Source: Candidatus Kerfeldbacteria bacterium
GTDB lineage: Bacteria; Patescibacteriota; Patescibacteriia; UBA10025; JAHIVO01
DNA length: 64,000 nt
Direction: 5' to 3'
Assembly: GCA_047946875.1 (NCBI GenBank)
Contig: CP181398.1
Location: 1,064,409 to 1,128,408, forward strand
The notes under the pieces are model-generated. The model was given only the letters and a program-made list of their open reading frames with translations, made no database searches and was not told where the DNA came from. Positions within the stretch are counted from its first letter, which is position 1, and the number at the start of each line of letters is the position of its first letter. The translations under genes and the position numbers were made by a program. Below, piece after piece: positions 30,945 through 61,395 of this stretch.

Positions 30945-31571
30945 CTACAGCAGAGAAATGCCAAGATTAAATGTAAAGCCATTATTACTGTCGGTTCTAA
31001 ATGGTCCACCAGAGTAAGAATTCATTATATGTTGTAAAGAGAATCCTATAAAAACCATTCCTGAGCCTGTTTTAATGCCAAACTCTGCACTCAATAAGAA
31101 ATAGCTTTGTTTCAGACGTGCTAATGAACCATCCTGAATATTCGTATTCATCTTCACACCAGATAAATCATAAACACCGGTTATCTTCCCTCTCCAATGG
31201 ACAAATGATAATTGCCTACTTCGAGAGTAAAGCTTGGACCAAGGTGTGGCCACAAAAGTACCTACACCTAGTTTTGATTTTTCTTCCTGATAGCTTCCAG
31301 CTGATGCATTCGCATAATGAGTATAAACTAGCGCAAAGTTGAAAAACCTTGCCAACTTATAGCTTGTCGTAACTCCAAAAGCACCGGAGAGCTTGATGTC
31401 GGTTGATGGCACATGAACAGTCTGTCCACCTGGCAGATACACAGACACTTCGAGAGGATTCAAATGACCTCGCTTGCGTTGAGCTTCGGCCGGTATAGCA
31501 AACATCCCTATTGGTAATAATATTATTACCAAAAACTTTAGCATTGTTGAACGGAAAATACAGCTCTCCAT
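30945..31571 (-). CDS. Outer-membrane-type beta-barrel protein candidate (OmpW/OmpX-like small porin fold)
   Basis: Signal peptide …MLKFLVIILLPIGMFAIPAEA. Repeated amphipathic alternating-hydrophobic strands (VSVYLPG, FALVYTHY, LGVGTFVATPW, LSFVHWRG, SYFLLSAEFGIK, GFTFNLGISLL). Strong AAGGAGG ribosome-binding site. GC is visibly higher than its neighbours. Confidence 0.45.
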   Translation of the reverse strand: MESCIFRSTMLKFLVIILLPIGMFAIPAEAQRKRGHLNPLEVSVYLPGGQTVHVPSTDIKLSGAFGVTTSYKLARFFNFALVYTHYANASAGSYQEEKSKLGVGTFVATPWSKLYSRSRQLSFVHWRGKITGVYDLSGVKMNTNIQDGSLARLKQSYFLLSAEFGIKTGSGMVFIGFSLQHIMNSYSGGPFRTDSNNGFTFNLGISLL

Positions 31572-31793
31572 TTTTTCCTCCTTGGAAAAATAATGGTATT
31601 AATTAGTCCCCTAACTAACACCTTTTTAAATTAATAAGTATTCGTCCTATGAATATTTTTTCAAATAACAATTTTAATTGCTAACAATAACACATATATA
31701 GTATTTGTCAATAGTCATAAAGGTGGTAATTGCATAATAAAAAACCGGATCTTCTTTTGGAAGTCCGGCTATAATTTTTGATAAACTTTTGAA

Positions 31794-32021
31794 TTAGTTT
31801 ATCTGTTCAACTTGCTCTTGAGATGACTCAATATTATTTAAGTCTTTATTGTAATCCGAGACGGCAAAGGCGGCTATGCCCACGATTACAAGAACTATCA
31901 CTAAGATAAATATGATTTTTACTCCCTTACCCAGAGCGCCTGTCAATTCAGTATCGTTAGTACGCTTGTGGTAAGTTTGATTTCCCTGCCGTTGCTTGAT
32001 TTTCCTTATTTTCTTACTCAT
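31794..32021 (-). CDS. Small single-pass membrane protein
   Basis: Start at ATG 32019-32021 (MSKKIRK…) behind an AGGGAG ribosome-binding site. One TM helix (IIFILVIVLVIVGIAAFAV). Confidence 0.4.
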   Translation of the reverse strand: MSKKIRKIKQRQGNQTYHKRTNDTELTGALGKGVKIIFILVIVLVIVGIAAFAVSDYNKDLNNIESSQEQVEQIN

Positions 32022-32152
32022 TAGAAATCTCCCTGAAATCAAATGTTTACCTTATGTTAACATATAAATATATATCAAATTATTCTTTTTGTCAAGAGTA
32101 GTATTCATTTGATCATTTGCTAAGATTCGCGTAAAATAAATCATGTAACCAT

Positions 32153-32449
32153 ATGATAAAAACTAAGTTAGGAAAATGGTCTGTTGGTTTAATGGGTTCG
32201 TTTATTCTTTGGATGATGATATTAATTATTTTAATTATTACTGGCCAAAAAGGTGGTGATACTTTTTTTAGTAACCCTCTCTTATCAATCTCGGCTGTAA
32301 TCGCTGCTCTATCAGGATTTATATCATTAATAGTAGGTCTCGTTGCAATAATAAAACATAAAGAAAAAGCTGCGTTAGTATACATATCTACCTTCCTTAG
32401 TTTATTGATTACCATATACATATTTGCTGAAATAATTTTTCCACATTAA
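32153..32449 (+). CDS. Small three-helix membrane protein
   Basis: Three hydrophobic segments. No ribosome-binding site. Confidence 0.4.
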   Translation: MIKTKLGKWSVGLMGSFILWMMILIILIITGQKGGDTFFSNPLLSISAVIAALSGFISLIVGLVAIIKHKEKAALVYISTFLSLLITIYIFAEIIFPH

Positions 32450-32475
32450 TATAATTTAGTAATAATTAAAAACAT

Positions 32476-34131
32476 ATGAAAAAACTAGCCTTCGTTTTAG
32501 GAATATCCATAGCCATTTTTGTCAGCGCAAACTTTGCTGAAGCTATTCAAATTATTGATGATGCTCTGCAAGTTAACTCATTAAGAGTTGGTCAACAAGG
32601 GGTTGGTGGTGTTACCTACTTTAATGGCACCATCATTAATGAAACAACTACTGATGGGGTGGGTAATCCTGTAGCTTTTGGAGATGATGTTAGAATAGAT
32701 GGAAGACTGTTTCGTGGAGCAACAGCTGGTACTGGAGATACACAACCATTCATTATTAATGATAATCTTGAAGTTGTTGGATCATTAACTGTAGGATCAA
32801 CTAACATACTTTCCAGTTTAAGCTCTCTTGGAACGACTGATGCCAACTTACAATCTCAGATTACCACTTTAGAAACAACGGACTCTAGTTTGCAATCTCA
32901 GATCTCTGCCAAAGGAGTTGGTGATATGTTGAAGTCAACCTACGATATTGCTGGAAACAGCAAGATAGATGCTGGGAAACTAGATTCTGGTATTGCTGCT
33001 ACATTGATCAGTAGTGGTGGCGTAAATAACACAATTTTTAATTATTTAGCTAGTCTTAATTTAGATAATACCGGCAATATTCATTTAACAGCTCTTGGTA
33101 TTGACGCTGGGGCATTAGTTACAGGAGCAGATAACACACTTTTTGGCTATCAGGCTGGAGATGCAATTACTTCGGGAATCAATAATACAGCATTTGGCTA
33201 CAACACACTTAGTGCTATATCTACAAATGCCAATAATACCGCAATTGGCAGTAACGCACTTGCTGTTAGCACTGCAACTAATAATACAGCAATTGGATAT
33301 GATGCTTTAGCAGCTAATACAATAGGTAATTCAAATACTGCAGTAGGAAGTAAAGCATTAGACGCAAATACTGAAGGTGAATTTAACACAGCAATCGGCT
33401 ATAGTGCTCTTACTGCAAATATATTAGCCAGTTCAAACACCGCTATCGGATATAATGCCATGGCAGCGCACAATGGCGCTGGTGCTATGAATGTTGCTAT
33501 TGGTAGAAATGCCTTAGATGCTAGCACAGGTGGAACTTGGAATGTAGCTGTTGGTTATGAGACTCTTACTACTGGCACGGGTAATGACTCGAGCGTTGCC
33601 GTTGGTTATCAGGCTTTAAGAGTAGCGCTTGGTGATAACAATGTTGCCGTTGGTTATCAGGCTGGGAACGGAATAACATCTGGGAATAATAATATTCTGA
33701 TTGGATATGATATTGATGCGGCTTCTCCTGGAGCAAGTAGTTATTATTTAAATATTGGTGATATCCTAACAGGAAGTCTTGACCCTACTGCACCTGGGCT
33801 CAGCATAGATAGTGGATTTGCATTAACACCATCGACAGATCAAACAAGAGAGGCTACATCTACTATTACAATTGATAATGGTATTGTTAGAGTAGTAAGC
33901 GATGGGGGAGGAATTGTTTTAGGAAGTACTGCAATTGAAGATGGAGCTGCAGATGGACAAATTGTAATTATTCAAGGCACTCACGACACCAATACAGTTC
34001 AAATACCAAATGCCGCTAATACTGCTCTCGTGGGTGATGCTGCAATTACTTTAGGTAAGGGAGATAATATACAATTAATGTGGGATAGTGGCGACAGCTT
34101 ATGGTATGAGATAAGTCGCGCCGATCATTAA
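32476..34131 (+). CDS. Secreted repeat protein with YadA-head/Hep_Hag-like beta-helix repeats (adhesin or fibre-like)
   Basis: Signal peptide MKKLAFVLGISIAIFVSANFA. Duplicated TTDxxLQSQI segment. More than 12 repeats of N(T/N)A(I/V)GY.AL.A (NTAFGYNTL, NTAIGSNAL, NTAIGYDAL, NTAVGSKAL, NTAIGYSAL, NTAIGYNAM, NVAIGRNAL, NVAVGYETL, SVAVGYQAL, NVAVGYQAG…), resembling the YadA head SVAIG repeat. Confidence 0.55.
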   Translation: MKKLAFVLGISIAIFVSANFAEAIQIIDDALQVNSLRVGQQGVGGVTYFNGTIINETTTDGVGNPVAFGDDVRIDGRLFRGATAGTGDTQPFIINDNLEVVGSLTVGSTNILSSLSSLGTTDANLQSQITTLETTDSSLQSQISAKGVGDMLKSTYDIAGNSKIDAGKLDSGIAATLISSGGVNNTIFNYLASLNLDNTGNIHLTALGIDAGALVTGADNTLFGYQAGDAITSGINNTAFGYNTLSAISTNANNTAIGSNALAVSTATNNTAIGYDALAANTIGNSNTAVGSKALDANTEGEFNTAIGYSALTANILASSNTAIGYNAMAAHNGAGAMNVAIGRNALDASTGGTWNVAVGYETLTTGTGNDSSVAVGYQALRVALGDNNVAVGYQAGNGITSGNNNILIGYDIDAASPGASSYYLNIGDILTGSLDPTAPGLSIDSGFALTPSTDQTREATSTITIDNGIVRVVSDGGGIVLGSTAIEDGAADGQIVIIQGTHDTNTVQIPNAANTALVGDAAITLGKGDNIQLMWDSGDSLWYEISRADH

Positions 34132-34171
34132 TCGAATTTATAGTATTTCAAATTAATTAATTTGGTATAAA

Positions 34172-34210
34172 AATAAAGCCTTGTAAATTATTACGGGGCT
34201 TTTTATTTTT
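34172..34210 (+). terminator. Rho-independent terminator
   Basis: AAAGCCTTGTAA-ATTA-TTACGGGGCTTT gives a 12-bp stem with two G-U pairs, followed by TTTTTATTTTT. Confidence 0.7.
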
Positions 34211-34290
34211 AATTAGAAAGATTAAATCATTTATCACTTTAAACTTTAACAAAAATGGATTCTTTATCAATTAATTGATACAATAAAATT

Positions 34291-34941
34291 ATGAAAATAG
34301 CTATACCAATTATAATTATTATTTTAATTCTATCCGTAGTTGGATATTTTATATTTCAAATCATGCAAGACGATCCACAGTATGACTTTACTCAGGTTTA
34401 TATAACAAACGTTAATTCAAATATTAATACCGCTCCTCAAATAGAAGAACCTATATTTATTGAACCAATAGCAGAATTCCAAGAGCGTATTACCAAAAAA
34501 CCATTTGGTATTTATATTACCCCAGATACCTCCCCTATCCAACCAGAAAAATTTAGTGGTTATCATACTGCTGTCGATGTTGAATATCCATATACCATTA
34601 GTGATGTGCCGGTCATAGCTATCTCTGACGGAGAAGTTGTGGCATCTAAAACCGTCTCAGGTTATGGTGGTGTTGTGATAATAAAACATACAATCAATGA
34701 TAACGAAGAAATTTTATCAATATACGGACACTTGAATGACGATCGCTCGGTTGATAAAAATAAGTATGTAAAACAAGGAGATGTTATTGGATATTTAGGT
34801 AAAGACAAAACTAAAGAAACCGACTTCGAAAGAAGACATCTACATTTTGGGATTATCAAAGGCGATAAAATTAATTATCATGGATACGTAGATGACGAAA
34901 ATGAACTTGAAAATTGGTATGATCCTATATTATTTTATTAA
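34291..34941 (+). CDS. M23-family (LytM-type) metallopeptidase, membrane anchored
   Basis: HTAVD, ISDGEVV, GYGGVVIIKH…YGHL, HLHFGI motifs. N-terminal TM helix. Confidence 0.85.
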   Translation: MKIAIPIIIIILILSVVGYFIFQIMQDDPQYDFTQVYITNVNSNINTAPQIEEPIFIEPIAEFQERITKKPFGIYITPDTSPIQPEKFSGYHTAVDVEYPYTISDVPVIAISDGEVVASKTVSGYGGVVIIKHTINDNEEILSIYGHLNDDRSVDKNKYVKQGDVIGYLGKDKTKETDFERRHLHFGIIKGDKINYHGYVDDENELENWYDPILFY

Positions 34942-34946
34942 ATTAT

Positions 34947-35576
34947 ATGAAACAAAAACAAATCAAACATATAGTTTTTGACTGGTCTGGAGTAATCGCA
35001 GATACTTTTGATAATTGGTTTATCGCCTCAACAAAGATATTTGAACACTTTGGTCATAAAAAACTATCTATCAAAGAATCACGAGAAAATTTTACCCAGC
35101 CATATATGGTTTTTTATAATAAGTACATGCCAAAGTTAGGATTAAAAGAACAACAAAAAGTTTACGAGAAAATCATTACCAAGCTGCCACCTGCAAATAT
35201 TTTCCCTGGAATGAGAAGTGAAATATTAAAATTTAAAAAAGCCGGTGTAGAATTATCCATCCTCAGCGGTGATAGACACCAAACTCTTTTTTTAGAAATG
35301 AAGAAGTATAAACTTAAAAATATATTTAACCAAATAGAATACAATATTCACGATAAAACAAAAACTATTAAAAAAGTTATAAGCAAAAGTGATTATAATC
35401 CAAAAGAAACTGTTTTTATCGGCGACACAACTCATGAAATCGAAGCTGGGAAAAAAGTGGGCTGCCAAACGTGTTCCGTAACTTGGGGATTTATGACAAA
35501 AAGAAGATTATCAAAAACTAAACCTACATATATTGTAAGTAAGCCAAGCTTATTATTTAAAACATTAATACATTAA
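34947..35576 (+). CDS. HAD-superfamily hydrolase (motif I variant DWSGV)
   Basis: IVFDWSGVIAD (motif I, second Asp replaced by Ser), SGD (motif II/III region), FIGDTTHEIEAGKKVG (motif IV). Confidence 0.75.
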   Translation: MKQKQIKHIVFDWSGVIADTFDNWFIASTKIFEHFGHKKLSIKESRENFTQPYMVFYNKYMPKLGLKEQQKVYEKIITKLPPANIFPGMRSEILKFKKAGVELSILSGDRHQTLFLEMKKYKLKNIFNQIEYNIHDKTKTIKKVISKSDYNPKETVFIGDTTHEIEAGKKVGCQTCSVTWGFMTKRRLSKTKPTYIVSKPSLLFKTLIH

Positions 35577-35579
35577 ACA

Positions 35580-35858
35580 ATGCCCGAAATAAAAATACTA
35601 AAAACCATGGAAAGCGACCATGGTTGGGAATGTACTGTCCAAATAAATGATGATGATAGTTCAACCGAACATTTGGTCACCATCCCCCTTACAACCTACT
35701 CTAGATTAACTGGCGAGCAATATCCAGTAGAACAGCTAGTTATAAAATCTTTTGAGTTTTTATTGAACAAAGAATCAAAAGAATCTATCTTAAGTGAATT
35801 CACCCTTGATATTATCGGTGATTATTTCCCAAGTTGGGAACAAGAAATAGTAAAATAA
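35580..35858 (+). CDS. Hypothetical small cytoplasmic protein
   Basis: ORF only. It is followed by the hairpin GACCCA…TGGGTC at 35868-35893. Confidence 0.4.
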   Translation: MPEIKILKTMESDHGWECTVQINDDDSSTEHLVTIPLTTYSRLTGEQYPVEQLVIKSFEFLLNKESKESILSEFTLDIIGDYFPSWEQEIVK

Positions 35859-35950
35859 AAAAGACCCATTTATTTTACTCGCTGGGTCATATTTACGAGT
35901 CCTGACCTCCATCAGAATTTTTTTTAAGGCTTGTTAGACCTAAGCTTTTT

Positions 35951-36196
35951 TCACTTTCTTTCAGTAATATATTCAAAACACATCCCTATAAATAGAAATA
36001 TGGCAACCATAGAACCAACACTTCCATTGGCCATTAAGATATTGCCAATTGTTGGTTTCATCATTGAATGCTCCAACATTACCATTGCAAAAAATGGAAA
36101 AGTGAATAAACATATCAAGGTAACAATAAAACCACTGCCCAATGAAAAGCCGATTGCTTTCAAGTAACCAAAGCTTCGTTTTACATTACTGTTCAT
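35951..36196 (-). CDS. Hypothetical small membrane protein (alternative to the overlapping + ORF 35931..36167)
   Basis: Two hydrophobic segments. Both strands are open here, and the choice of strand is weak. Confidence 0.3.
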   Translation of the reverse strand: MNSNVKRSFGYLKAIGFSLGSGFIVTLICLFTFPFFAMVMLEHSMMKPTIGNILMANGSVGSMVAIFLFIGMCFEYITERK

Positions 36197-36338
36197 TTTT
36201 TTCCCTTGGTTTTGATTTATTTTTCAAATTTCTTTTTAACCAATTATAATATCACCAAACTATCCATTTGTCAACCCTAAACAACAAATTAGAATATACA
36301 AAAAACTAACACCAACTTCTATATTATAGGTATTTATT

Positions 36339-38506: not shown

Positions 38507-41143
38507 ATGCCTATCCCACACCTAAAAGAACCAAATTTTAGAGTAAAAAAAATTGGTGCGAGAGTAAGCCAATTTAATAGAAGAAACCGAAAAAAAAATA
38601 AACCAAGAGAAAAACTCGGTAAACTTCAATGGCTTAAATCTAACTGGTTATTAGTATTAATCATTCTTGCTTTTACATTTGTTATTTTAATAATTAGTGC
38701 TTTTGCGTGGTATTCACGTGACCTTCCTGATCCCGATAAAATAATGGCAAGAACAATAGCTGAAAGCACTAAAATATATGCTAATGATGGAACTTCTTTA
38801 TTATATGAAATACATGGAGACGAAAAACGCACCTTAGTAGAAATTGAAGATATTCCTGACATTATGAAACAAGCAACTATAGCAATTGAAGACCATGATT
38901 TTTATGAACATGGTGGCTTTTCATTGGCTGGTATTATTAAAGCAACTTGTCATGAGGTTTTTGGTAATCTTGGTGGACTATGCCCACAACGTGGTGGCTC
39001 TACTATCACTCAACAGTTTGTAAAAAATGCGATATTAACTAACGAAAGATCTTATACAAGAAAGATAAAAGAACTTGTACTTTCTTATCAGTTAGAAAAA
39101 CAATTTGAAAAAGACCAAATACTACAACTATATTTCAATGAAATTCCTTTTGGTTCTACTTTATATGGAGTAGAATCTGCTTCTCAATCTTTCCTAGGTA
39201 AACCGATACAAGATATTACTTTATCTGAGGCAGCTTTTCTAGCATCTATCCCAAATAGACCAACTTACTATTCTCCTTATGGTAATAATACAGAAGCTCT
39301 CTCTAACCGTCTTCACACCGTATTAAACGAAATGGTTAAACTTGGATTTGTAACAGAAGAAGAAGCGGAGGAAGCAAGAAATGATAATATATTAGCTAGA
39401 CTCAAACCAAAGTATGAAAATATCACGGCCCCACATTTCGTTTTTTATGTACGTGAACAGCTCAGTGAAAAATATGGAGAGAAAGTAATTGAGCAGGGTG
39501 GCTTACGAGTTACCACTACTATTGATATTGAAAAACAAACAATCGCCGAAGAAGTACTTGAAACCCAGGCAGAAAAAAATAAAATTAATTATAATGCTAA
39601 TAATGCTGCTCTTGTTTCTATCGATACAAAGACTGGTCAAATATTAGCCATGGTAGGGTCAAAAGATTATTTTAATGAGGAGATAGACGGCAATGTTAAC
39701 GTAACTCTTAGACCCAGACAACCAGGATCTTCTTTTAAACCTTTAGTATATTTAACCGCCTTTAATCAAGGTTTTACACCAGAAACCATCCTATTTGACC
39801 TCGTTACCAAATTTAAAACAGGTGCTGCCGACTATGAACCAAAAAACTATGATTTAGGAGAACGTGGCCCAGTCTCCATGAGAGAGTCCTTAGCTGGTTC
39901 TCTAAACGTAACCGCTGTAAAGACATTGTATTTAGCTGGAATTGAAAATGTTCTTGATGCCGCAGATAGTTTTGGTTACTCAACCCTTGGAGACAGAAGT
40001 AGGTTTGGATTATCTCTAGTTTTGGGTGGTGGTGAAGTAACTCTTTTAGACCACACTTCGGCTTTTGCTACTTTTGCAAGAGAAGGTGTATATCACCCAG
40101 TTGTATCTATCTTAAAAATTGAAGACCATAATGGAAAAGTGTTGGAAGAATATGAAGCACGAGAAGATCAAGTTTTTAACAAAGAAAATGTTCGTACACT
40201 TAACAGCATTCTCTCGGATGATGGAGCTCGTGCCTATGTATTTGGTACCGGTAGTGTTTTAACTCTTCCAGGACGCCCTGTAGCAGCGAAAACAGGAACT
40301 ACTAACGACTACCGTGATGCTTGGACTATTGGTTACACCCCTTCAATTGCTACTGGGGTCTGGGTAGGTAATAATGATAATTCAGAAATGAGACGGGGTG
40401 CTGCAGGATCTGTTGTTGCTGCACCAATTTGGCACAACTATATGAAACAAGTAGTTACAGGTCCAGTTGAAACTTTTCAAACAGCACCTGCCAACACAAC
40501 TACTAAAGATATCTTACAAGGGAACATAGAAGGGGAAACCGCTCTTCAAGTAGACAGTATTACTGGAAAACTTATTCCTGAAGAATGTAAAGACACTTAT
40601 CCAGAACTATTTATTGAAGAAAAAATATTTAGAATTATTCACAATATTTTACACTATGTAGATAAAAGTAATCCCGATGGTCCTGTTCCAGCCGATCCTA
40701 CCATTGATCCACAATACGAAAGATGGGAAGAACCTGTAAGACGTTGGGCAACAGAAAATGACTACCTAGAAACTAAACCAGAGCTAGGAGATTGTGCATT
40801 ACGTGCAGTAGAAAATCAACCTACTATTAAAATTACCTCACCAACAAAAAATGACACCGTAAGCACAAACTCTCTTGCATTAACTGTTAGTGCAAGCGCC
40901 TCAACCACCTCTACAAGCGCTCTAGAAAGAGTTGATTACTATATTGATGATGTGCTAATAGGAACTTCTAAAAAGGCTCCTTTCAGCCTTTCCCATACTA
41001 TTAGTGATACAACTTTTGAAAATGGTTTTCACGACTTAAAGGTTATTGTCTATGATAAATTAGAAAATTTTTCTTCTGAGACAGTTATCTTTAATTATTT
41101 AGTTGGACAACCAACAACAAATTCAAATACTAATTCTTTATAA
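38507..41143 (+). CDS. mrcA: Class A penicillin-binding protein (GT51 transglycosylase plus transpeptidase) with extra C-terminal domain
   Basis: EDHDFYEHGG and GGSTITQQ (GT51). SGSSFKP, SLN and KTGTT (transpeptidase). N-terminal TM helix. Confidence 0.9.
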   Translation: MPIPHLKEPNFRVKKIGARVSQFNRRNRKKNKPREKLGKLQWLKSNWLLVLIILAFTFVILIISAFAWYSRDLPDPDKIMARTIAESTKIYANDGTSLLYEIHGDEKRTLVEIEDIPDIMKQATIAIEDHDFYEHGGFSLAGIIKATCHEVFGNLGGLCPQRGGSTITQQFVKNAILTNERSYTRKIKELVLSYQLEKQFEKDQILQLYFNEIPFGSTLYGVESASQSFLGKPIQDITLSEAAFLASIPNRPTYYSPYGNNTEALSNRLHTVLNEMVKLGFVTEEEAEEARNDNILARLKPKYENITAPHFVFYVREQLSEKYGEKVIEQGGLRVTTTIDIEKQTIAEEVLETQAEKNKINYNANNAALVSIDTKTGQILAMVGSKDYFNEEIDGNVNVTLRPRQPGSSFKPLVYLTAFNQGFTPETILFDLVTKFKTGAADYEPKNYDLGERGPVSMRESLAGSLNVTAVKTLYLAGIENVLDAADSFGYSTLGDRSRFGLSLVLGGGEVTLLDHTSAFATFAREGVYHPVVSILKIEDHNGKVLEEYEAREDQVFNKENVRTLNSILSDDGARAYVFGTGSVLTLPGRPVAAKTGTTNDYRDAWTIGYTPSIATGVWVGNNDNSEMRRGAAGSVVAAPIWHNYMKQVVTGPVETFQTAPANTTTKDILQGNIEGETALQVDSITGKLIPEECKDTYPELFIEEKIFRIIHNILHYVDKSNPDGPVPADPTIDPQYERWEEPVRRWATENDYLETKPELGDCALRAVENQPTIKITSPTKNDTVSTNSLALTVSASASTTSTSALERVDYYIDDVLIGTSKKAPFSLSHTISDTTFENGFHDLKVIVYDKLENFSSETVIFNYLVGQPTTNSNTNSL

Positions 41144-41199
41144 CTTATCAAATAAAAAATATCCCGGATAATCGAGGATACTTTTTTTATTATTTCTAA

Positions 41200-41228
41200 T
41201 TGACAAACATATCCCTCTATACTAATAT
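41200..41228 (+). promoter_or_regulatory. Sigma70-type promoter TTGACA-17-TAATAT upstream of 41279 gene
   Basis: Read directly. Followed by the ribosome-binding site AAGGAGG and a TTG start. Confidence 0.45.
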
Positions 41229-41278
41229 AATATGGACAATATTATAAGTAACTAAATGCTAAATGCAAGGAGGTAGTA

Positions 41279-42067
41279 TTGAGTAAATTATCGTTCATTA
41301 CAGTAAAAGACACTAGTTCTCTGTCAACAGACGGAATACTTCACTTATTTATGGAGTCTTGTCCAAACGGGTATGAGACCTGGAAAAAGTTTCGAGACGA
41401 AGCAATGAGTCTTGTGGCAAGTGCAAACAAAATTCAAAGCGTGATATTCGATATTTCCGGAATTGAAATCCCAGACAAAGAATGGTTTTTTATCAGCGGA
41501 GCTCTTCATTCCATACGAATGAGTATCATGTCCAAAAAATACAATTTTGCACTTCTCTCTGGTGAAGAACACAGAAAAAACCGTAAGCTATATCAGATTT
41601 TATATCACACCCTCTATGCTCAAGACAGCATGAAGGAAGCGCAAGAATTCTTGGGCAAAGCACACATGCAGAATCCTGGTACTTACGAGTACACTATTAA
41701 GTCCATGGCGGGTTACGCTGAGATAAGGTTTGTAGTTAGCCAAATATACCCGATTGTATTCCCTATGAAATCCCTCAAGCGAGATATCAATGCTCTGATT
41801 AGCGATAATATTGTTAATATCGTCATCTGTAGCAATTTCGATCTCTATGGTGAATCGTCACGTAGTGAAATGAGGGGACATATGATCGCTTGGGTCTTCA
41901 ACGAACTTCTTGAAGTTCTCAATGTAAAACTCCCTAAAGGAGTTACTATCAGATTTGCTGATCCGACACTCAATACAGCTAGGTTAGCGGCTAAACAAGA
42001 CTGGCCCATTGATGATGAAGCTGATAGCTCAAAAAAGAAATTTCTCAAACCATGGGGGAAAAAGTAA
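41279..42067 (+). CDS. Hypothetical protein (two internally similar halves); island gene
   Basis: TTG start 5 nt after AAGGAGG. GC by eye about 40% against about 30% in the flanks. The halves share the pattern VIFDISGIEIPDKEWFFISGALHSI / IVICSNFDLYGESSRSEMRGHMIAWVFNEL. Confidence 0.55.
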   Translation: MSKLSFITVKDTSSLSTDGILHLFMESCPNGYETWKKFRDEAMSLVASANKIQSVIFDISGIEIPDKEWFFISGALHSIRMSIMSKKYNFALLSGEEHRKNRKLYQILYHTLYAQDSMKEAQEFLGKAHMQNPGTYEYTIKSMAGYAEIRFVVSQIYPIVFPMKSLKRDINALISDNIVNIVICSNFDLYGESSRSEMRGHMIAWVFNELLEVLNVKLPKGVTIRFADPTLNTARLAAKQDWPIDDEADSSKKKFLKPWGKK

Positions 42068-42141
42068 CCAACATAGTGGTTAGTGTAAAGAGGCGTTTAT
42101 AATGTCTCTTTTTTTATTTAAGAAATAATTCAGCTGATAAG

Positions 42142-42170
42142 TTGACAATATATGATTTGTATGATAAATT
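42142..42170 (+). promoter_or_regulatory. Sigma70-like promoter TTGACA-17-TAAATT upstream of 42216 gene
   Basis: Read directly. A third copy of the same hexamer pair lies at 42750-42778 with no ORF downstream. Confidence 0.4.
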
Positions 42171-42215
42171 AATACGTTCAATAATAAAGCAATATTATAA
42201 AAAGTGGAGGAAATA

Positions 42216-42608
42216 ATGGCTGAAACTATTGAGCAACGCTGCTCTATACCAAAATGGCACTGGTTCAATGTCATGAAAGATCTGGAAACACAAGGGAAAC
42301 TCCCCGGTGTAACTATTGACCCTCTTTCTGTGAAAGAGAATGGCTGTGCAGGAGAAACAGCTAAGGGCACCAGATTTTATTTTTCTTGGATCAAAGACAC
42401 TTTTCTGTTACTAAGTATGGTACCAGAAGAGTTAGAACTAATAGAGGCTTTCGCCGCTATCGTTGAATACCGCCCTTTTTGCAGGTATACTACCAATTCA
42501 GAAGATGGTACCGAGATGATCACCTTCGAATGGGATAAAAAAGACTCGCAAGGAAGATTTGTGGAGCTACAGAAAGAAAGAAAAGAGAATCTCCAGCCTG
42601 TTGAATAA
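42216..42608 (+). CDS. Hypothetical 130-aa protein; island gene
   Basis: ATG 5 nt after GGAGG (the track start at 42204 is an upstream GTG). No family recognised. Confidence 0.5.
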   Translation: MAETIEQRCSIPKWHWFNVMKDLETQGKLPGVTIDPLSVKENGCAGETAKGTRFYFSWIKDTFLLLSMVPEELELIEAFAAIVEYRPFCRYTTNSEDGTEMITFEWDKKDSQGRFVELQKERKENLQPVE

Positions 42609-42844
42609 AAAGTATCCTGATATTTGAGAATACGACTATATATAACAGTCAGCTCTGTTAACAACTGTTGACATTCTCCTCCCTAAGACCCGAGCAAGTC
42701 TCTAAACTGCTCATTTTTTATTTCAAAAATTCGTAATAATATTTGTAGATTGACAATAAAGCCATTATTAACTAAATTGAATAAACTTTTAAATTGTACA
42801 AAAAAAATACCCTGCTCAATTGAGGATATTTTTTTATATTATAT

Positions 42845-43945
42845 TTATTGTTTAATCGGCATGATTATATAAACGTAGTCTTTTTTATTTTTTGGTCTTA
42901 ATAAACCAGGATTTGTATTTGTATTAATTTCTAATATACACTCTTCATCTTCAATATTTTGTAAACCTTCTAATAAAAAACGATAGTTAAAAATAATATT
43001 ATTTTCTATACCTTCTAATTTAACTTCTTGTTTCGCTTCACTTTCTCCAATTTGCATATTATTTGCAGAAATTGTAATTTCACTATTTTCAATTAAAAAT
43101 TGTATTAGTATGTCATTACTCCCTGTTTTGCAAAACAAACTAGCCCTTTTAACTGTTTTAATTAAATCACCTGTATTAACTATTGCCAAGGTTTTATGTT
43201 CTTTTGGGATAATTTGTTTATAGTCTGGATATTTTCCTTCTATCAAACGAGATGATAGTTTTGCACCAGCAATAGAAAATACTACTTGATTATCATTTAT
43301 CTTAATTTGTAACATTTCATCTTCATCTCCAATTATTCTTACTAACTCTTGAATTGTTTTAATTGGGACAATAAAATTCTGTTCTTTAACTTCTTTATTT
43401 AAGGATATTTCTTTTTCGGCTAACCTATAACTATCAGTGGCGGCAAGAACTAAAGAATTGTTAATAAAATTAAAAAATACTCCATTTATTTCAGGTCTTG
43501 TCTCGTCAAAAGAAACAGCAAAAAAGACTGAATTTAGGGCATTTTTTAAGATTTTTCCGTCTATTTCAATATTTTCTTCTGATTCAACTTGTGGTATTAA
43601 TGGAAATTCTGATGCTTCCATACCCTTCATTGAAGTTTTTGAATTACTACTTTTTATTTTTAAATTTTGTTCTTCAAGCTCTATTTCAATATTTTCTTTT
43701 GGTAATAAATTAATATAATCACTTAAAGTTTTTGCTTGGACAGTAAAAGATCCTTCTCTTTCTACTTTTCCTCTCACCTGACAAATAATCCCCATCTCTA
43801 AATTTGTGGTCATTAATTTTAAAATTCCATTTTCTGTTTTTAATAAAACATTACTAAGAATTGGTAAAGAAATATTTTTACTTGCAATATGACTTACTAG
43901 TTGTAATCCTTTAGATAAGTTTTCTTGTGTACAAGTTATCTTCAT
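42845..43945 (-). CDS. dnaN: DNA polymerase III beta sliding clamp
   Basis: MKITCTQENLSKGLQLVSHIASKNISLPILSNVLL… Three-domain length. Lies downstream of dnaA. Confidence 0.9.
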   Translation of the reverse strand: MKITCTQENLSKGLQLVSHIASKNISLPILSNVLLKTENGILKLMTTNLEMGIICQVRGKVEREGSFTVQAKTLSDYINLLPKENIEIELEEQNLKIKSSNSKTSMKGMEASEFPLIPQVESEENIEIDGKILKNALNSVFFAVSFDETRPEINGVFFNFINNSLVLAATDSYRLAEKEISLNKEVKEQNFIVPIKTIQELVRIIGDEDEMLQIKINDNQVVFSIAGAKLSSRLIEGKYPDYKQIIPKEHKTLAIVNTGDLIKTVKRASLFCKTGSNDILIQFLIENSEITISANNMQIGESEAKQEVKLEGIENNIIFNYRFLLEGLQNIEDEECILEINTNTNPGLLRPKNKKDYVYIIMPIKQ

Positions 43946-45764: not shown

Positions 45765-45902
45765 ATGCCAAAAAGAACCTATCAACCAAAAACAAAGCAA
45801 CGAAAAACAAAACACGGTTTTAGAAAGAAAATGCAGTCTAAAAGTGGGCAAAAAACTATTGCCAGAAGAAGAGCAAAAGGAAGAAAGAAATTAGCTTCAT
45901 AA
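45765..45902 (+). CDS. rpmH: 50S ribosomal protein L34 (not in the supplied ORF track)
   Basis: [45 protein letters not shown], classic L34. 45 codons. Confidence 0.9.
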
Positions 45903-54224: not shown

Positions 54225-54246
54225 GTCTTGTTACAATATGTAATAG

Positions 54247-54498
54247 GGCTTTTTATTTTACTAATTCCCAATTTGGATCAGCATCGAGTTTTTTCCAATC
54301 AGAAAAATCTTTTTGTTTTGCATGGTGATATCCAGCGATGGCAATCATCGTGGCATTATCAGTACAAAGCTTGAGAGGAGGATAGTGATACTTAGTATTA
54401 GGGAGTTCTTTGGTGACAGCTTGTCCTAGTTGTTCTCGTAGAGGTTTGTTTGCCGCTACACCACCAGCCAGGAGGACTGTTTTAATTTTAAGTTTTTT
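54247..54498 (-). pseudogene. Orphan duplicate of the 3' end (last ~75 codons plus stop) of tsaD; left arm of a perfect ~250-bp direct repeat
   Basis: 54251-54497 is base-for-base identical to 55768-56014 as far as I can read. That stretch is the C-terminus of tsaD, …PLKLCTDNATMIAIAGYHHAKQKDFSDWKKLDADPNWELVK*. Confidence 0.8.
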
Positions 54499-54690
54499 TT
54501 CTGTTTTGCGATGTCTGAAATTTTTCTTTGACTATTTTTTTGTATTCATAAATTATAGTATACTGAAAAAATACACTAAGAACATGTTATTGAGGTTTTA
54601 TTGGATTTTAAGTATATGGTAGACTTAATAATATTAACGCAAATATATTTAGTATAAAATATATATTTATTGCAAAGTAAAAGAAAAAGT

Positions 54691-55713
54691 ATGAACGATT
54701 TATCAAAAATAAATATTGATTATAAAACTACCCGCAATACTTCAAATAAGCCAATATTTCATACGGCGTCTTTAGATGATACTCTAACAAAATTTTCGTA
54801 TGAAGCTAAATTATTAAAAAATGGTCAAAACGAACTAGATGATTTTATTAAAAATGGGGGGCTTGAAAATTTCAAAAGAATATTTATTATTATTAAAAAA
54901 ATTCTTAAATTATCACCTTTAAGATTAGGTGTATATTTAGTTAATAGACATGCTTTAAAAAATGTATATATAGACGCTTTAAAATTAATCCAAGAAGTAT
55001 TAGAAGTATTAAGTATTAAATTACAAAATAATAAAATTAGGATAGTAAATAATTCTTGGAATTATCGGGAGGTAAAGAAAATGATTAGTTTTGGAGAATA
55101 TGTTGCATGGTATCTCCAGGCACTTGATAATATGTATACAATAGAGATGTTATCAAGTTATTATTATTCAATAGTTGGTAAGAATAGTAATGTTACTTCA
55201 AGATTTTTTAATTTATTTTTTCGATTTCCTGAAAAGATAATTAGAAAATTGTTTGGTATGAGTTATATAGCACATAGATCAGAATCACGATTTGAAAAAA
55301 AATTTAGACTGGTAACAGGAAGAGCTAATAAATTATTATTTAAATCATTATCTAATAGAATAAATGAAGAAGAAATATTACTAAATTTTAAGAAGCATGT
55401 TCAAAGATTAAAAGTTAAAAATGAGATTATTCAATTTACTTTGGAAAAACCATGGAGAGCTAGAAGAATGCTATCAAGGGGATTTGCAATAATTTCTGTT
55501 TCTATTGCTTTGGTACAACAATTTATATATAAAGGAGATTTTATTGTTTTAATGGAAATATTATTTTCAGGATTGGCAATTGTGTTAGTGATAAATTGGG
55601 TACCATATTTTATTAAAGTGGGGGTTGATAAGTTTGCCTATAAAAATCTCAAGTCAATAAATCATTCGAGAAAAAAAATTGAATTATATTTTACTATTAA
55701 AAAGAAATTCTAA
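54691..55713 (+). CDS. Hypothetical AT-rich protein with C-terminal two-helix membrane module; cargo of the insert between the tsaD repeats
   Basis: ATG 54691 (MNDLSKINIDYK). About 250 aa of soluble, Lys/Asn-rich N-domain. C-terminal GFAIISVSIALVQQFIY and FIVLMEILFSGLAIVLVINWVPYFI helices. No homolog recognised. Confidence 0.55.
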   Translation: MNDLSKINIDYKTTRNTSNKPIFHTASLDDTLTKFSYEAKLLKNGQNELDDFIKNGGLENFKRIFIIIKKILKLSPLRLGVYLVNRHALKNVYIDALKLIQEVLEVLSIKLQNNKIRIVNNSWNYREVKKMISFGEYVAWYLQALDNMYTIEMLSSYYYSIVGKNSNVTSRFFNLFFRFPEKIIRKLFGMSYIAHRSESRFEKKFRLVTGRANKLLFKSLSNRINEEEILLNFKKHVQRLKVKNEIIQFTLEKPWRARRMLSRGFAIISVSIALVQQFIYKGDFIVLMEILFSGLAIVLVINWVPYFIKVGVDKFAYKNLKSINHSRKKIELYFTIKKKF

Positions 55714-55760
55714 AAACAAACCAAAACATTCGTTTTCCCTTCCGTTATGGTATATAAAGG

Positions 55761-56014
55761 GGGCGTTTTTATTTTACTAATTCCCAATTTGGATCAGCAT
55801 CGAGTTTTTTCCAATCAGAAAAATCTTTTTGTTTTGCATGGTGATATCCAGCGATGGCAATCATCGTGGCATTATCAGTACAAAGCTTGAGAGGAGGATA
55901 GTGATACTTAGTATTAGGGAGTTCTTTGGTGACAGCTTGTCCTAGTTGTTCTCGTAGAGGTTTGTTTGCCGCTACACCACCAGCCAGGAGGACTGTTTTA
56001 ATTTTAAGTTTTTT
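55761..56014. repeat. Right arm of the ~250-bp direct repeat (within intact tsaD 3' end)
   Basis: See the 54247..54498 feature. Identity starts at the tsaD stop codon region and ends about 82 codons upstream of the stop. Confidence 0.8.
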
Positions 56015-56791
56015 AGCAGCTTTGATAGTTTTTTTGACTAAGACGTCGACGGCAGCTTGTTGAAAGCTAGCAGCTATATTATCGACGGGGACGTTTTTAT
56101 TGTTAAATTGTTTTTTAACAAGATAAAGAACGGAGGTTTTCAGACCAGAAAAGCTAAAATCAAAATTATTTTGGTTTATCATTGGGCGCGGAAATTTATA
56201 ACTATAGGGATCACCCTTTTTAGCTATTTTTTGAATCATTGGACCGCCCGGATAGCCAAGTTCTAATAATTTTGCTACTTTATCAAAAGCTTCTCCAACC
56301 GCATCATCACGAGTTTGACCGATTAACTTATAATTATTATGTTTCTTTATTTCAATTAATTCTGTGTGACCTCCAGAGACAACTAAGCAAAGTGCTGGTA
56401 ATCTTAAATTTGGATTTTCATACCAATTAGCATAGATATGTCCTTCCATATGATTTAATCCTACAATTTTTTTGTTCCAGGTAACACTTAATGTTTTTGC
56501 AGTCTGTACTCCAACTCGAAGTGAGGTAATTAACCCAGGCCCTTTAGTTACCGTAATATTAGAAATATCTTTTGGTGTTATTTTTGCTTTTGTAAGAGCA
56601 GTTTCTAAGACGGGAATAATATTAACTACATGTTCTCTTGCGGCTACTTCTGGAACTACTCCGCCATATTTTTTATGAGTTTTGATCTGTGATGCTACAA
56701 CGTGTGACAGAATTTCAAAACGACCAGCCGTGGCCTTGACCACACTGATAGCTGTTTCATCACAAGAAGATTCAATTCCTAGAATTATCAT
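55769..56791 (-). CDS. tsaD: tRNA N6-adenosine threonylcarbamoyltransferase TsaD (Kae1/Gcp family)
   Basis: MIILGIESSCDETAISVV…. The metal-binding HxEGH region reads NHMEGHIY. Confidence 0.9.
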   Translation of the reverse strand: MIILGIESSCDETAISVVKATAGRFEILSHVVASQIKTHKKYGGVVPEVAAREHVVNIIPVLETALTKAKITPKDISNITVTKGPGLITSLRVGVQTAKTLSVTWNKKIVGLNHMEGHIYANWYENPNLRLPALCLVVSGGHTELIEIKKHNNYKLIGQTRDDAVGEAFDKVAKLLELGYPGGPMIQKIAKKGDPYSYKFPRPMINQNNFDFSFSGLKTSVLYLVKKQFNNKNVPVDNIAASFQQAAVDVLVKKTIKAAKKLKIKTVLLAGGVAANKPLREQLGQAVTKELPNTKYHYPPLKLCTDNATMIAIAGYHHAKQKDFSDWKKLDADPNWELVK

Positions 56792-56908: not shown

Positions 56909-56929
56909 ATTTAGGTAATAAAAATGGAT

Positions 56930-57006
56930 TGGTAGCGCCAAGGGGATTCGAACCCCTGTTACCACATTGAAAGCGTGGTGTCCTGACCAAGCTAGACGAT
57001 GGCGCC
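56930..57006 (-). tRNA. tRNA-Glu (anticodon UUC), CCA encoded
   Basis: The reverse complement GGCGCCATCGTCTAGCTTGGTCAGGACACCACGCTTTCAATGTGGTAACAGGGGTTCGAATCCCCTTGGCGCTACCA folds as a cloverleaf. Anticodon loop CTTTCAA, T-loop TTCGAAT. Near-colinear with E. coli tRNA-Glu. Confidence 0.9.
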
Positions 57007-57017
57007 TTATATATTTA
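56994..57017. repeat. Left direct repeat AGACGATGGCGCCTTAT(atattta), covering the 5' end of the tRNA-Glu gene
   Basis: The 17-bp perfect core is repeated at 57313-57329, and about 20 of 21 bp match including the flank. Confidence 0.6.
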
Positions 57018-57312
57018 TTTACTCAATTAAGTTGTTTTAGTTGTTTACGAAGTAGCCCTGATTTTTTAATTTGTTGTTCCCTTTTACGAGTATCTGTTTT
57101 ATTCAAGAATTTTTCAATTTTAACTAATTTATAAGGTATATATGATTTTGATGAACTTACATTGCCATTATTATGCTCTTTGATTCTTCGATTAACATTA
57201 TTAGTACTCCCTATGTATAATCTACTATTTTTTATGCTTTTAAGAATATATACGTAATACATAATTATATTATTATCAAGCTTCCGGCATAGCCGGATCA
57301 GGCTCTGCCTGA
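57018..57312 (-). mobile_element. Mini-insertion carrying a GIY-YIG nuclease gene, bounded by ~20-bp direct repeats
   Basis: About 300 bp between the repeats. It contains only the 79-aa GIY-YIG ORF plus two short GC hairpins (CCGGC-ATA-GCCGG, TCAGGC-TCT-GCCTGA) in its 5' leader. Confidence 0.5.
57023..57262 (-). CDS. Small GIY-YIG-domain nuclease (UPF0213/YhbQ-like)
   Basis: YVYILKSIKNSRLYIGSTNNVNRRIKEHNNG matches GIY…YIG…R…E.H.G and is colinear with E. coli YhbQ ([30 protein letters not shown]). Confidence 0.8.
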   Translation of the reverse strand: MYYVYILKSIKNSRLYIGSTNNVNRRIKEHNNGNVSSSKSYIPYKLVKIEKFLNKTDTRKREQQIKKSGLLRKQLKQLN

Positions 57313-57336
57313 AGACGATGGCGCCTTATGTATATT
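57313..57336. repeat. Right direct repeat AGACGATGGCGCCTTAT(gtatatt)
   Basis: Partner of 56994..57017. Confidence 0.6.
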
Positions 57337-57375
57337 CTATGGGTTTAAAAAAATATTAACTTAAATTACATGATT

Positions 57376-57420: not shown

Positions 57421-57491
57421 TCAACCATATTGTTTAAAAGCTATATTTATACTATAATAATTATACAAATAAATTTTATAAAAATATAATC

Positions 57492-57941: not shown

Positions 57942-57946
57942 TAAAT

Positions 57947-58180: not shown

Positions 58181-58184
58181 ATAA

Positions 58185-60050: not shown

Positions 60051-60059
60051 TTTTTTTCA

Positions 60060-60105
60060 AAAAGAAAACCCGAGTCACATCCTATGTGAATCGGGTTATT
60101 ATTTG
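60060..60105. terminator. Bidirectional hairpin between convergent VanW and 60184..60807
   Basis: AACCCGAGTCACAT-CCT-ATGTGAATCGGGTT (14 bp, one mismatch). A-rich before it and T-rich after. Confidence 0.6.
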
Positions 60106-60183
60106 ATTGTATATTTATGTAGTAGGTACATGATTCCCTCCAATCGATTTGATTATTGAAGGGAGAAGACGAGGGGGGTACAA

Positions 60184-60807
60184 CTATGAACCGTTTGCAG
60201 TTTTGTCACTCCCGCTTTCATTAAATATGTTACTCCACCAAGGCTCTTCTTCTGTCGAGATTGGTCGTTCTTTGAGTTTTGTAAAAAGTCTCTGATCAAG
60301 TCCGGTGATCGCTACGGTTACAATCTGACCAGATTCCAAACTAGTAGCATCGTTAATTTGCCAGGGATCCCAGTGGGTTGTTTTGGTATGTTCCCATTTG
60401 TTTATAATCATGGGATCTTCCATAACACTAGTTGGGGTTAGGGAGATATTGTATCCTCCTAAAATTGGATCGAGATCTCCAGTAATTTGGTAATCACCGG
60501 ATGATAGGACATGTGTTCCTTGGTCTGAAGTATCAGCAATATCACCTTCTTGATAATTGCCAGTAATATTCATACCAAAACTGAAGAAAAACAGCATGAG
60601 GAATGGTGCTATTGTTCTAACTGGCTTGCCGAGGTACTTATGTGCACCAAATTTGCGAATCGAAAATGCAAGGGCAATACTAAGCAGCATTACTATTACA
60701 AAGAGGATTGTTAGTGGGACACTAGTACTTGTGAAAAGGCTCATAAATGGGTCATAGAGAATTGTTTTGACACCATCTGCAAACCATTTCAATAGATATT
60801 CAAGCAT
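60184..60807 (-). CDS. Hypothetical membrane protein (two N-terminal TM helices plus ~130-aa extracytoplasmic domain); island gene
   Basis: Ribosome-binding site AAGGAGAT 6 nt before the ATG. GC by eye above 40%. Confidence 0.5.
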   Translation of the reverse strand: MLEYLLKWFADGVKTILYDPFMSLFTSTSVPLTILFVIVMLLSIALAFSIRKFGAHKYLGKPVRTIAPFLMLFFFSFGMNITGNYQEGDIADTSDQGTHVLSSGDYQITGDLDPILGGYNISLTPTSVMEDPMIINKWEHTKTTHWDPWQINDATSLESGQIVTVAITGLDQRLFTKLKERPISTEEEPWWSNIFNESGSDKTANGS

Positions 60808-60858
60808 AATTATCTCCTTGAAACTTATTAAATTACTTCCTTGTCTTGTTTTGGATTG

Positions 60859-61041
60859 TTAATCCAAACTATCTGGCGGTAAAGATGATCGTCCGCAATC
60901 ACCACCGATATCATCACGCTGATGATCTTCGAGGCGATAATTTGCTGCCTCATTGTCATCTCTGTATCCAGCATCACCTGGGTTGGTAGCCTTAATGACT
61001 TTGATGTTGAATCCGTTACAGACTGGACAATGTCCTGTCAT
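60859..61041 (-). CDS. 60-aa Cys-containing (CPVC) acidic small protein, first gene of a two-gene operon
   Basis: MTGHCPVCNGFNIKV…. Ribosome-binding site AAGGAGGT 5 nt before the ATG. Confidence 0.45.
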   Translation of the reverse strand: MTGHCPVCNGFNIKVIKATNPGDAGYRDDNEAANYRLEDHQRDDIGGDCGRSSLPPDSLD

Positions 61042-61395
61042 TGTTATACCTCCTTAGTGTATTTTAATATGTTAATGATACTATCTATATATACAAACAA
61101 CCGGCAACCAATTAATATAAGTTAATGCTCACTAATCTGCAGTCAAGAAGGTTGTTATAAGGGAAAATTAAGAATAAATCCCCAATAATCCTTAAATCAA
61201 ACTCCATGCTTGTCGTGACTGCAGGTTAGTAAACACCACTTGTTTAACTAATAAGCTTCCGGCTGTAAATAAACGAAAAATGTGATATTTAAAGGTCTAA
61301 AATTAATAACAGTCAATATTAACACAAGCTTTTCATCTTGTCAAGGGCGGTTTTAAATGATAAGATCTTAGTATTAATAATATAATTAAATATTT

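Follow-up and report, generated by a model that had tools for sequence, protein, structure and literature searches.

In Bacteroidia (group B of GeneMarkS-2, Flavobacterium johnsoniae), core genes are almost devoid of Shine–Dalgarno (SD) sequences (PMC6028130, PMC9976891, PMC13000453), starts are set in A-rich, G-poor leaders, and a small minority of genes carries a strong, conserved SD. In these bacteria the anti-SD is sequestered by bS21/bS18/bS6; in Flavobacterium it is intact and the SD is kept on rpsU and prfB (PMC9976891, PMC13000453, PMC10798248). Non-SD genome classes are recognized by GeneMarkS-2, which also models atypical genes on their own, yet it draws no connection between them (PMC6028130). 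In the candidate phyla radiation (CPR), the anti-SD motif CCTCCT was detected in only 48% of Parcubacteria, with the affected lineages overlapping the group that lacks uL1 (Tsurumaki et al. 2022, RNA 28:1041; PMC9297842), and bS21 is often absent from Parcubacteria (PMC9297842). That study scored the 16S tail, not mRNA signals, and proposes that SD helices do not form. It is the only report that we found on start-codon choice in Patescibacteria, covering anti-SD loss in one subgroup; our literature search returned no report of SD usage in the clade studied here, of SD sites used to recognize foreign genes where the genome is otherwise poor in them, or of a U(−1) start signal in Patescibacteria. 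Here we describe two classes of translation-initiation signal in 64,000 nucleotides surrounding the replication origin of a Candidatus Kerfeldbacteria chromosome (Patescibacteria; metagenome-assembled genome, contig CP181398.1), hereafter the window, in which six open reading frames (ORFs) led by strong SD sequences stand among native genes without them.

As in Bacteroidia, core genes at this locus have almost no SD, their leaders are A-rich and G-poor, and a small minority of genes carries a strong SD. The SD-led genes are native regulators (rpsU, prfB) in Bacteroidia, whereas here they are orphan, compositionally foreign accessory genes, and the strongest native start context is a U directly 5' of the start codon (U(−1)) rather than a discrete A-rich motif. 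Sequestration of the anti-SD by ribosomal proteins may likewise set Bacteroidia apart from the present case. With the anti-SD-less Parcubacteria (Tsurumaki et al. 2022) the organism shares a CPR ancestry and altered ribosomes. However, the clade of Kerfeld-, Buchanan-, Falkow-, Uhr- and Kuenenbacteria-like lineages keeps conserved, well-spaced accessory SDs, and the conservation and spacing of these sites argue for an intact anti-SD. A further parallel is the genomic islet and amelioration model of Lawrence and Ochman, with short inserts in a conserved backbone, deviant codon usage and G+C content at third codon positions (GC3), orphan content, and reuse of the same junctions as insertion hot spots. 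In contrast to islet models, the discriminating feature here is a translation-initiation signal, and the integrase, tRNA target and flanking repeats of typical islets are missing from the borders. Furthermore, the composition is un-ameliorated in two species with substantial synonymous divergence, unlike what the amelioration model describes.

The explanation we favor, with a probability of roughly 0.7, is that the SD-led units are accessory or mobile DNA inserted from an unsampled SD-using pool, and that they have kept their own translation signal. Core genes in the lineage and the wider clade are translated without SD pairing, from A/U-rich, G-depleted leaders that usually place a U before the start, and the SD-led units would enter the conserved backbone at recurrent junctions. 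The source pool would have a mid-range GC3 and might consist of phages, plasmids or another bacterium. The SD sites probably still work in the host, pairing with its 16S rRNA, in which case the anti-SD tail of the ribosome would still be functional despite its neglect by core genes.

All 63 genes of the window were scored by the hybridization free energy (ΔG) of positions −20 to −3 against the anti-SD 5'-ACCUCCUUA-3', with thresholds of ΔG ≤ −6 and ΔG ≤ −8. Starts were taken from the longest ORF, both here and in the related loci discussed below, and the genes were divided into 46 with and 17 without a Pfam family. SD-like sites at ΔG ≤ −6 precede seven of the 17 genes without a family and four of the 46 with one (Fisher p = 0.006); at ΔG ≤ −8 the counts are 6/17 and 1/46. 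The background in the window is 4.9% and 1.5% at the two thresholds for random positions, and 7.5% and 2.2% for internal in-frame ATGs. The counts for Pfam-assigned genes are close to this background, which places SD-like strings in these genes at chance level.

The original prediction, made by reading the sequence alone, had listed six ORFs with AAGGAGG-like sites, and all six are found in their places, 4–8 nt before the start. It had further named housekeeping genes without a recognizable ribosome-binding site, which is confirmed for dnaA (ΔG +1.9), valS (+0.4), mrcA (−0.4), pilB (−2.8) and both copies of glgA (>0), but tyrS turned out to be borderline (TAAGGG, ΔG −6.0). The dichotomy can indeed be scored by program, as had been proposed: SD ΔG was run against GC3 and codon usage for the 63 window genes and against GC3 for 80 related loci, and in neither set are ribosome-binding sites equally common among core genes.

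Composition separates the same two classes. Within the window, the median GC3 is 0.33 for SD-led genes and 0.21 for the remainder (Mann–Whitney p = 2.6 × 10⁻⁵), and the six flagged ORFs reach 0.33–0.42. When the 63 genes are ranked by the log-likelihood of their fit to native synonymous codon usage, the six lowest fits are exactly the six flagged ORFs, a coincidence with a probability of about 1 in 6.8 × 10⁷ by simple arithmetic. At fourfold-degenerate sites of these ORFs both G and C are raised, and the native rpmH and Hsp20 genes retain AT-rich third positions. Together these two observations indicate a compositional shift rather than an expression-linked codon bias, and a reading of high GC3 as a mark of high expression was rejected. 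Nor does the SD single out proteins that are secreted or membrane-bound, given that N-terminal hydrophobic segments occur in 22% of SD-led and 19% of other accessory genes (p = 0.49).

The SD is a specific but not a sensitive marker of foreign-looking genes. The proposal that it flags horizontally acquired cargo is supported in that it tracks three independent indications of foreign DNA, namely codon usage and GC3, syntenic absence and orphan status; its insensitivity limits it, and acquisition itself remains the probable origin rather than an observed one. Some SD-like sites had escaped the original prediction (Table 1). Of all Pfam-assigned genes in the window, the T4SS pilin gene at 848 alone has a strong SD-like site, with a native GC3 of 0.19. 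For the CDP-alcohol phosphatidyltransferase gene (63563), the GC3 is 0.32 and the codon-usage fit the seventh-worst.

The same pattern is observed beyond the window. The comparison set comprises 80 related loci from one-genome-per-species GTDB contigs, each limited to dnaA ± 10 kb and with the window excluded. The nearest DnaA proteins in these contigs are 70–74% identical and belong to Patescibacteria metagenome-assembled genomes, followed by matches in Kerfeld-, Buchanan-, Falkow-, Uhr-, Kuenen- and Magasanikbacteria. The 1,416 genes of the set were classed by the number of other loci that hold a homologue. SD sites at ΔG ≤ −6 (ΔG ≤ −8 in brackets) precede 17.8% (10.8%) of orphans (n = 443), 12.7% (8.3%) of genes with a homologue in 1–4 loci (n = 181), 3.5% (2.0%) of those with one in 5–19 loci (n = 341) and 4.7% (1.3%) of those with one in at least 20 loci (n = 451), against a background of 7.2% (2.0%). 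Some spurious ORFs are contained in the orphan classes, which dilutes the contrast and does not inflate it. If any start within the first 25 codons is allowed, SD sites are found for 9–10% of conserved and 29% of orphan genes. As the GC content of the host loci ranges from 30% to 56%, it is the clade, rather than a high AT content, that accounts for the scarcity of SD sites.

In SD-led orphans of these loci the spacing is concentrated at 4–7 nt. The median GC3 deviation from the conserved genes of the host is 0.07–0.12 for SD-led accessory genes and 0.02–0.03 for conserved genes (p = 2 × 10⁻²²), and SD-led accessory genes deviate more than accessory genes without an SD (p = 6 × 10⁻⁶). GC3 is shifted towards higher values where host GC is low and towards lower ones where it is highest, with individual SD-led accessory genes at 0.70–0.80 in hosts at 0.39. 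In 163 pairs of accessory homologues the two members agree strongly in SD status (odds ratio 39, p = 5 × 10⁻¹⁸), and a syntenic family of 66-aa Zn-ribbon proteins retains AAGGAGG-type sites at 35–72% protein identity. Retention over such long times is the strongest evidence at hand that ribosomes of the clade read SD sites.

Native genes show a different start context. Leaders of conserved genes are A-rich (0.40–0.48) and G-poor (0.10–0.12) from −20 to −2, with no discrete motif resolved. A U at −1 is a modest enhancer in E. coli and is said to pair with A37 of the initiator tRNA in an extended codon–anticodon interaction. In the clade, position −1 of conserved genes is T in 65% and G in 4%, and T rises to 80% in the lowest-GC loci. 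SD-led accessory genes have T(−1) in only 25% (p = 2 × 10⁻¹⁴ against conserved genes), and in the window it precedes 34 of 52 genes without an SD and one of seven SD-led orphans. The native context thus recalls the U(−1) of Esposito et al. 2003, but what is a modest enhancer in E. coli appears here, across an entire clade, as the positional signal that dominates, and we regard U(−1) as a candidate native start-context signal. The 65% figure also indicates that most native starts are placed correctly. Leaderless initiation of native genes was rejected: in 459 conserved genes preceded by a gap of at least 60 nt, TATAAT-like hexamers do not pile up at any fixed position ahead of the start, and the rpmH leader is about 27 nt long. 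No rRNA gene was found by Rfam in the window and no 16S signature by 3'-end and V4 motif scans of the window and loci L001–L114, and neither RF2, with its frameshift-site SD, nor bS21 had a match in any locus.

The six SD-led ORFs, named below by their start positions, occupy three short inter-operon segments at 30945-32021, 41279-42608 and 60184-61041. Each follows one layout, with a sigma-70-like promoter (perfect or near-perfect TTGACA), a leader of about 40–105 nt, the SD, the ORF, and a hairpin and U-tract terminator (Table 1). The promoter of native rpmH, which was recognized by eye from its translation, is of the same type, so transcription signals do not separate the two classes; the translation signal and codon usage do. 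The segments are not copies of one element, as no DNA or protein similarity exists among them. The six proteins have no match in Pfam, PHROGs or PADLOC except for a marginal hit of i32021 to a PHROG of unknown function (E = 0.006), and Rfam in E-value mode reports no known RNA family in the three segments. A beta-barrel impression for i31571 was unsupported, with a structure-prediction pLDDT of 33.

Table 1. Coordinates of the SD-led units, the additional SD-like sites and a native gene for comparison (window numbering; UTR, untranslated region)
Feature	Position	Strand	Details
SD AAGGAGG	31577-31583	−	5 nt before ATG 31571; ΔG −11.4
Orphan i31571	30945..31571	−	208 aa; hydrophobic N-terminal segment; GC3 0.34; third-worst codon fit
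Promoter-like TTGACA-N16-TATTGT of i31571	31711-31684	−	~105-nt leader; feature spans 31595..31711
i31571 leader, 12-bp hairpin and U-tract	31622-31595	−	directly ahead of SD
SD GGGAG	32029-32033	−	7 nt before ATG 32021; ΔG −8.2, weakest of the six
Small ORF i32021	31794..32021	−	75 aa; hydrophobic segment; GC3 0.42
Promoter-like TTGACA-N17-TATATT of i32021	32095-32067	−
Terminator of i32021	31739-31768	−	conserved in L081
1.7-kb insertion	41144..42844		between convergent mrcA (38507-41143) and dnaN (42845-43945); holds i41279 and i42216
Promoter-like TTGACA-N17-TAATAT, first unit of dnaN/mrcA insert	41200..41228	+
SD AAGGAGGT	41267-41274	+	4 nt before TTG 41279; ΔG −12.7
Singleton orphan i41279	41279..42067	+	262 aa; GC3 0.40
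Second unit of dnaN/mrcA insert	42142..42608	+	promoter-like TTGACA-N17-TAAATT, 42142-42170
SD GGAGG	42206-42210	+	5 nt before ATG 42216
ORF i42216	42216-42608	+	130 aa; GC3 0.39
SD AAGGAG	60814-60819	−	6 nt before ATG 60807; ΔG −8.5
ORF i60807	60184-60807	−	207 aa; membrane protein; GC3 0.34
3'UTR of i60807	60059..60183	−	ends in hairpin and U-tract terminator, 60059-60097
SD TAAGGAGGT	61048-61056	−	6 nt before ATG 61041; ΔG −13.3
Small ORF i61041	60859-61041	−	60 aa; CPVC motif
T4SS pilin gene, additional SD-like site	839..1201	+	start 848; GGGGGTGA at 839-846
Hypothetical gene 53784, additional SD-like site			AGAGGA
CDP-alcohol phosphatidyltransferase gene, additional SD-like site	63550..64000	+	ATG 63563; AAAGAGGTG 5 nt upstream; gene runs off the window
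rpmH (L34), native comparison	45765..45902	+	promoter-like TTGACC-N17-TATAAT; ~27-nt A/U leader; no SD; T at −1

The window has a GC content of about 31% and a cumulative GC skew minimum at about 43–44 kb, consistent with an origin beside dnaA. Its Pfam annotation is that of a typical CPR backbone: T4SS pilins, glycosyltransferases, two GlgA, two GH57, RuvC, YebC, PGI, GalT, TyrRS, ROK kinase, PBP1 (mrcA), DnaN, DnaA, RnpA, YidD, YidC, TsaE, PilB, ValRS, TsaD, Hsp20, VanW, NIF3 and RuvB. Its sole RNA gene is a tRNA-Glu at 56930-57006(−). The backbone common to relatives runs TsaD-ValRS...PilB...DnaA-DnaN-PBP1-ROK-TyrRS-GalT-GlgA.

Against this backbone, the segment that holds i41279 and i42216 is an insertion. 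The dnaN–mrcA spacing, 1.7 kb in the window, is only 70–190 nt in ten relatives (L001, L004, L005, L006, L008-L012 and L077). L003 and L007 carry different, unrelated inserts at the same junction, each with one gene led by a very strong SD (AAAGGAGGT, ΔG −12.9, and AGGAGGT, ΔG −13.6) along with ORFs without an SD. A metagenome scan with DnaN returned distant relatives only, at up to 51% identity over the full length, and one partial match at 60%. The strong-SD gene at the L003 junction (7322-9694, −) encodes an M23 peptidase with a Por_Secre_tail domain. This is presumably a type IX secretion sorting domain, typical of Bacteroidota and the Fibrobacteres–Chlorobi–Bacteroidetes (FCB) group, and would be surprising in a member of the Patescibacteria.

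The TyrRS/GalT gap, 70–900 nt in relatives, spans 6.4 kb in the window (29930-36338). Besides i31571 and i32021, this variable region harbours accessory genes without an SD whose composition is native, namely hyp249, a depolymerase-like protein, M23 and HAD genes. At the same junction, L081, an ENA contig of a congener with 33% GC and a 94% identical GalT, has a different gene set that includes a spermine-synthase-like protein, and hyp249 (29988-30737) is missing from it. At 32476-34131(+) the window encodes a 551-aa Gly/Ala/Asn-rich repeat protein with a C-terminal phage-depolymerase beta-sandwich domain; it lifts the local GC to 0.40 with a native GC3 (0.22), so GC alone would mislabel it as foreign.

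Homologues of the island proteins do not extend far. About 15 billion proteins yield no donor homologue for i41279. For i41279, 5.8 × 10⁹ clustered proteins hold no homologue besides its own NCBI record, phmmer against 1.84 × 10⁹ representatives returned nothing but itself, and viral contigs gave no match. Orthologues of i31571, at 77–83% identity, occur only in close relatives, and homologues of i60807 are likewise confined to them. The i31571 orthologue in L081 lies at the same place, adjoining GalT, and the ratio of non-synonymous to synonymous substitution rates (dN/dS) between the two is 0.13. The i32021 protein is only 37% identical to its L081 counterpart. On L082/L083 the i60807 orthologue (75% identical, dN/dS 0.27) adjoins the 3' end of VanW and has kept its SD, and L082 also contains a partial orthologue of i61041. 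Two of the proteins are thus under purifying selection.

The SD sites are conserved with these genes. A 26-nt block with the SD upstream of i31571, TATTTTTCCAAGGAGGAAAAAATGGA, is 100% identical in L081 beside a stretch of about 35 nt in which the 5'UTR has strongly diverged, and a 21-nt block that includes the SD of i32021 is kept as well. The i31571 leader hairpin persists in L081 (9895-10000, +) with a different stem sequence and compensatory changes, and its fold z-scores are −4.5 in the window and −3.8 in L081. Base pairing is also feasible between its U-tract and the SD region, in the 3' half of the latter (window 31595-31680, −). The leader has no Rfam match and resembles an attenuator of transcription or a switch that masks the SD. 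At the other end of the window, the ~125-nt 3'UTR of i60807 (60059-60183, −), whose terminator also serves the convergent VanW gene, exceeds the coding sequence in its conservation against L082; it has no Rfam match and might act as a small RNA or in regulation as a 3'UTR.

The proportion of synonymous differences (pS) is 0.44 for i31571 against L081 and 0.38 for i60807 against L082, below the saturated 0.59–0.77 of flanking native genes. These lower values may reflect a later arrival of the island genes, or exchange among related species after their divergence. Non-synonymous differences in i31571 and i60807 are more numerous than in the flanking native genes.

Several observations weigh against insertion of foreign DNA as a full account of the SD-led genes. 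The correspondence between SD and composition is incomplete: 10 of the 17 genes without Pfam family lack an SD and have native codon usage, as do most genes of the 6.4-kb variable region at 29930-36338, and clearly accessory genes without an SD include hyp249, ORF347 and the M23 and HAD genes of that region, while a few genes of native composition, such as pilin 848, carry SD-like sites. Constraint acting at synonymous positions, rather than recent transfer, could explain why the island genes diverge less there, and the conservation of the SD block at i31571 may in part stem from the overlapping hairpin and U-tract. The borders of the three islands show no integrase or transposase family match, no tRNA target, and no flanking or linking repeats. 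For no island protein was a donor or distant homologue found among viral contigs, the 5.8 × 10⁹ proteins, the 1.84 × 10⁹ representatives, PHROGs or PADLOC, which leaves horizontal transfer to be argued from insertion and composition.

Part of this evidence is also what one would expect if the SD-led ORFs were native, lineage-restricted genes, fast-evolving or formed de novo, in which the SD suits stand-alone regulated transcripts with long, partly structured leaders where the A/U-leader mode would fail. The units at 30945-32021 and 60184-61041 lie at identical positions in congeners, under purifying selection and with their SD kept; they are therefore not very recent and could be old lineage-specific genes. 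Their promoter-like sites match that of native rpmH, the conserved hairpin and U-tract in the i31571 leader suggest attenuation control, and the absence of a donor fits equally. Nevertheless, rpmH is itself a stand-alone, leadered transcript and has no SD. The codon usage of the six ORFs is the most atypical in the window, with both G and C raised at fourfold sites, and SD-led accessory genes of relatives exceed the GC3 of their hosts by up to 0.3–0.4. Moreover, none of the relatives examined has the dnaN/mrcA unit, with L003 and L007 holding unrelated strong-SD inserts in its place, and the synonymous divergence of the other units is below that of flanking genes. A native origin seems unlikely to us.

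A second alternative holds that the SD motifs are non-functional relics, the 16S rRNA of the host having lost its anti-SD too recently for them to decay. In its favor, one subgroup of Parcubacteria is reported to have lost the anti-SD (PMC9297842), SD sites of core genes are at or below background, and the NCBI start of i41279 is an internal ATG with U at −1 instead of the SD-led TTG. Decay, however, is not what the sites display. SD blocks are perfectly kept between species with synonymous differences of 38–44% or more, the Zn-ribbon family preserves its SD down to 35% protein identity, homologue pairs agree in SD status with an odds ratio of 39, and the spacing is concentrated at 4–7 nt. The lineages reported to lack the anti-SD overlap the uL1-lacking Parcubacteria, which we take to be a different subgroup from the Kerfeld/Falkow/Uhrbacteria group. 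We consider the relic explanation very improbable. Still less credible, and already effectively refuted, is an artefact in which chance SD strings in GC-richer DNA, misassigned native starts or misassembled foreign contigs mimic two classes. SD-like hexamers are somewhat commoner in GC-richer sequence, the background at ΔG ≤ −6 is 4.9% in the window and averages 7.2% in the related loci, and starts follow the longest ORF. Even so, all six flagged genes reach ΔG ≤ −8 at 4–8 nt against a background of 1.5%, the 25-codon start tolerance leaves the contrast between conserved and orphan genes in place, and U(−1) in 65% of conserved genes indicates that native starts are mostly right. The ORFs span 60–262 codons, two of them with dN/dS below 0.3, and native genes border the islands at either end. 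The recurrence of the same units at the same loci in the independent assemblies L081 and L082/L083 rules out an assembly chimera.

The window contains further candidate mobile DNA outside the SD-led units. The ValRS/TsaD gap is 34–50 nt in relatives and 2.07 kb here. A 259-nt direct repeat, 98% identical, occupies 54250-54508 and 55766-56024; the second copy is the 3' end of tsaD (55769-56791, −) and the first is a detached duplicate of that end. Between them lie 1,257 AT-rich bases (54509-55765) carrying a 347-aa orphan ORF (54670-55713) with a TTG start and no Pfam, PHROG or PADLOC match. Such an A-B-A arrangement resembles the outcome of recombination between a small circular element and the 3' end of tsaD. 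Close by, a 21-nt direct repeat, 95% identical (56994-57014 and 57313-57333), flanks a 79-aa GIY-YIG nuclease ORF (57023-57262, −), and its first copy overlaps the 5' end of tRNA-Glu, which suggests a small mobile cassette inserted beside a tRNA gene.

A bolder extension would be a two-tier system, in which core genes start through the A/U leader and U(−1) and SD competence is kept mainly for accessory, mobile or host-interaction genes. We regard this as rather improbable. If it were true, all SD-led cargo could be switched together, with heterogeneous ribosomes or an occluded 16S tail as conceivable means, as the bS21-lacking ribosomes of Flavobacteria suggest by analogy.

Patescibacteria make up a huge uncultured share of bacterial diversity, and little has been published on start-codon selection by their reduced ribosomes. 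The present results show that core genes throughout the Kerfeld/Buchanan/Falkowbacteria-like clade are translated without an SD, and the conserved SD sites predict an intact anti-SD. Start-codon annotation is affected, as in the internal ATG called for i41279. In these genomes, accessory genes of foreign composition can be flagged by their SD, a sequence marker that is specific and costs little to score.

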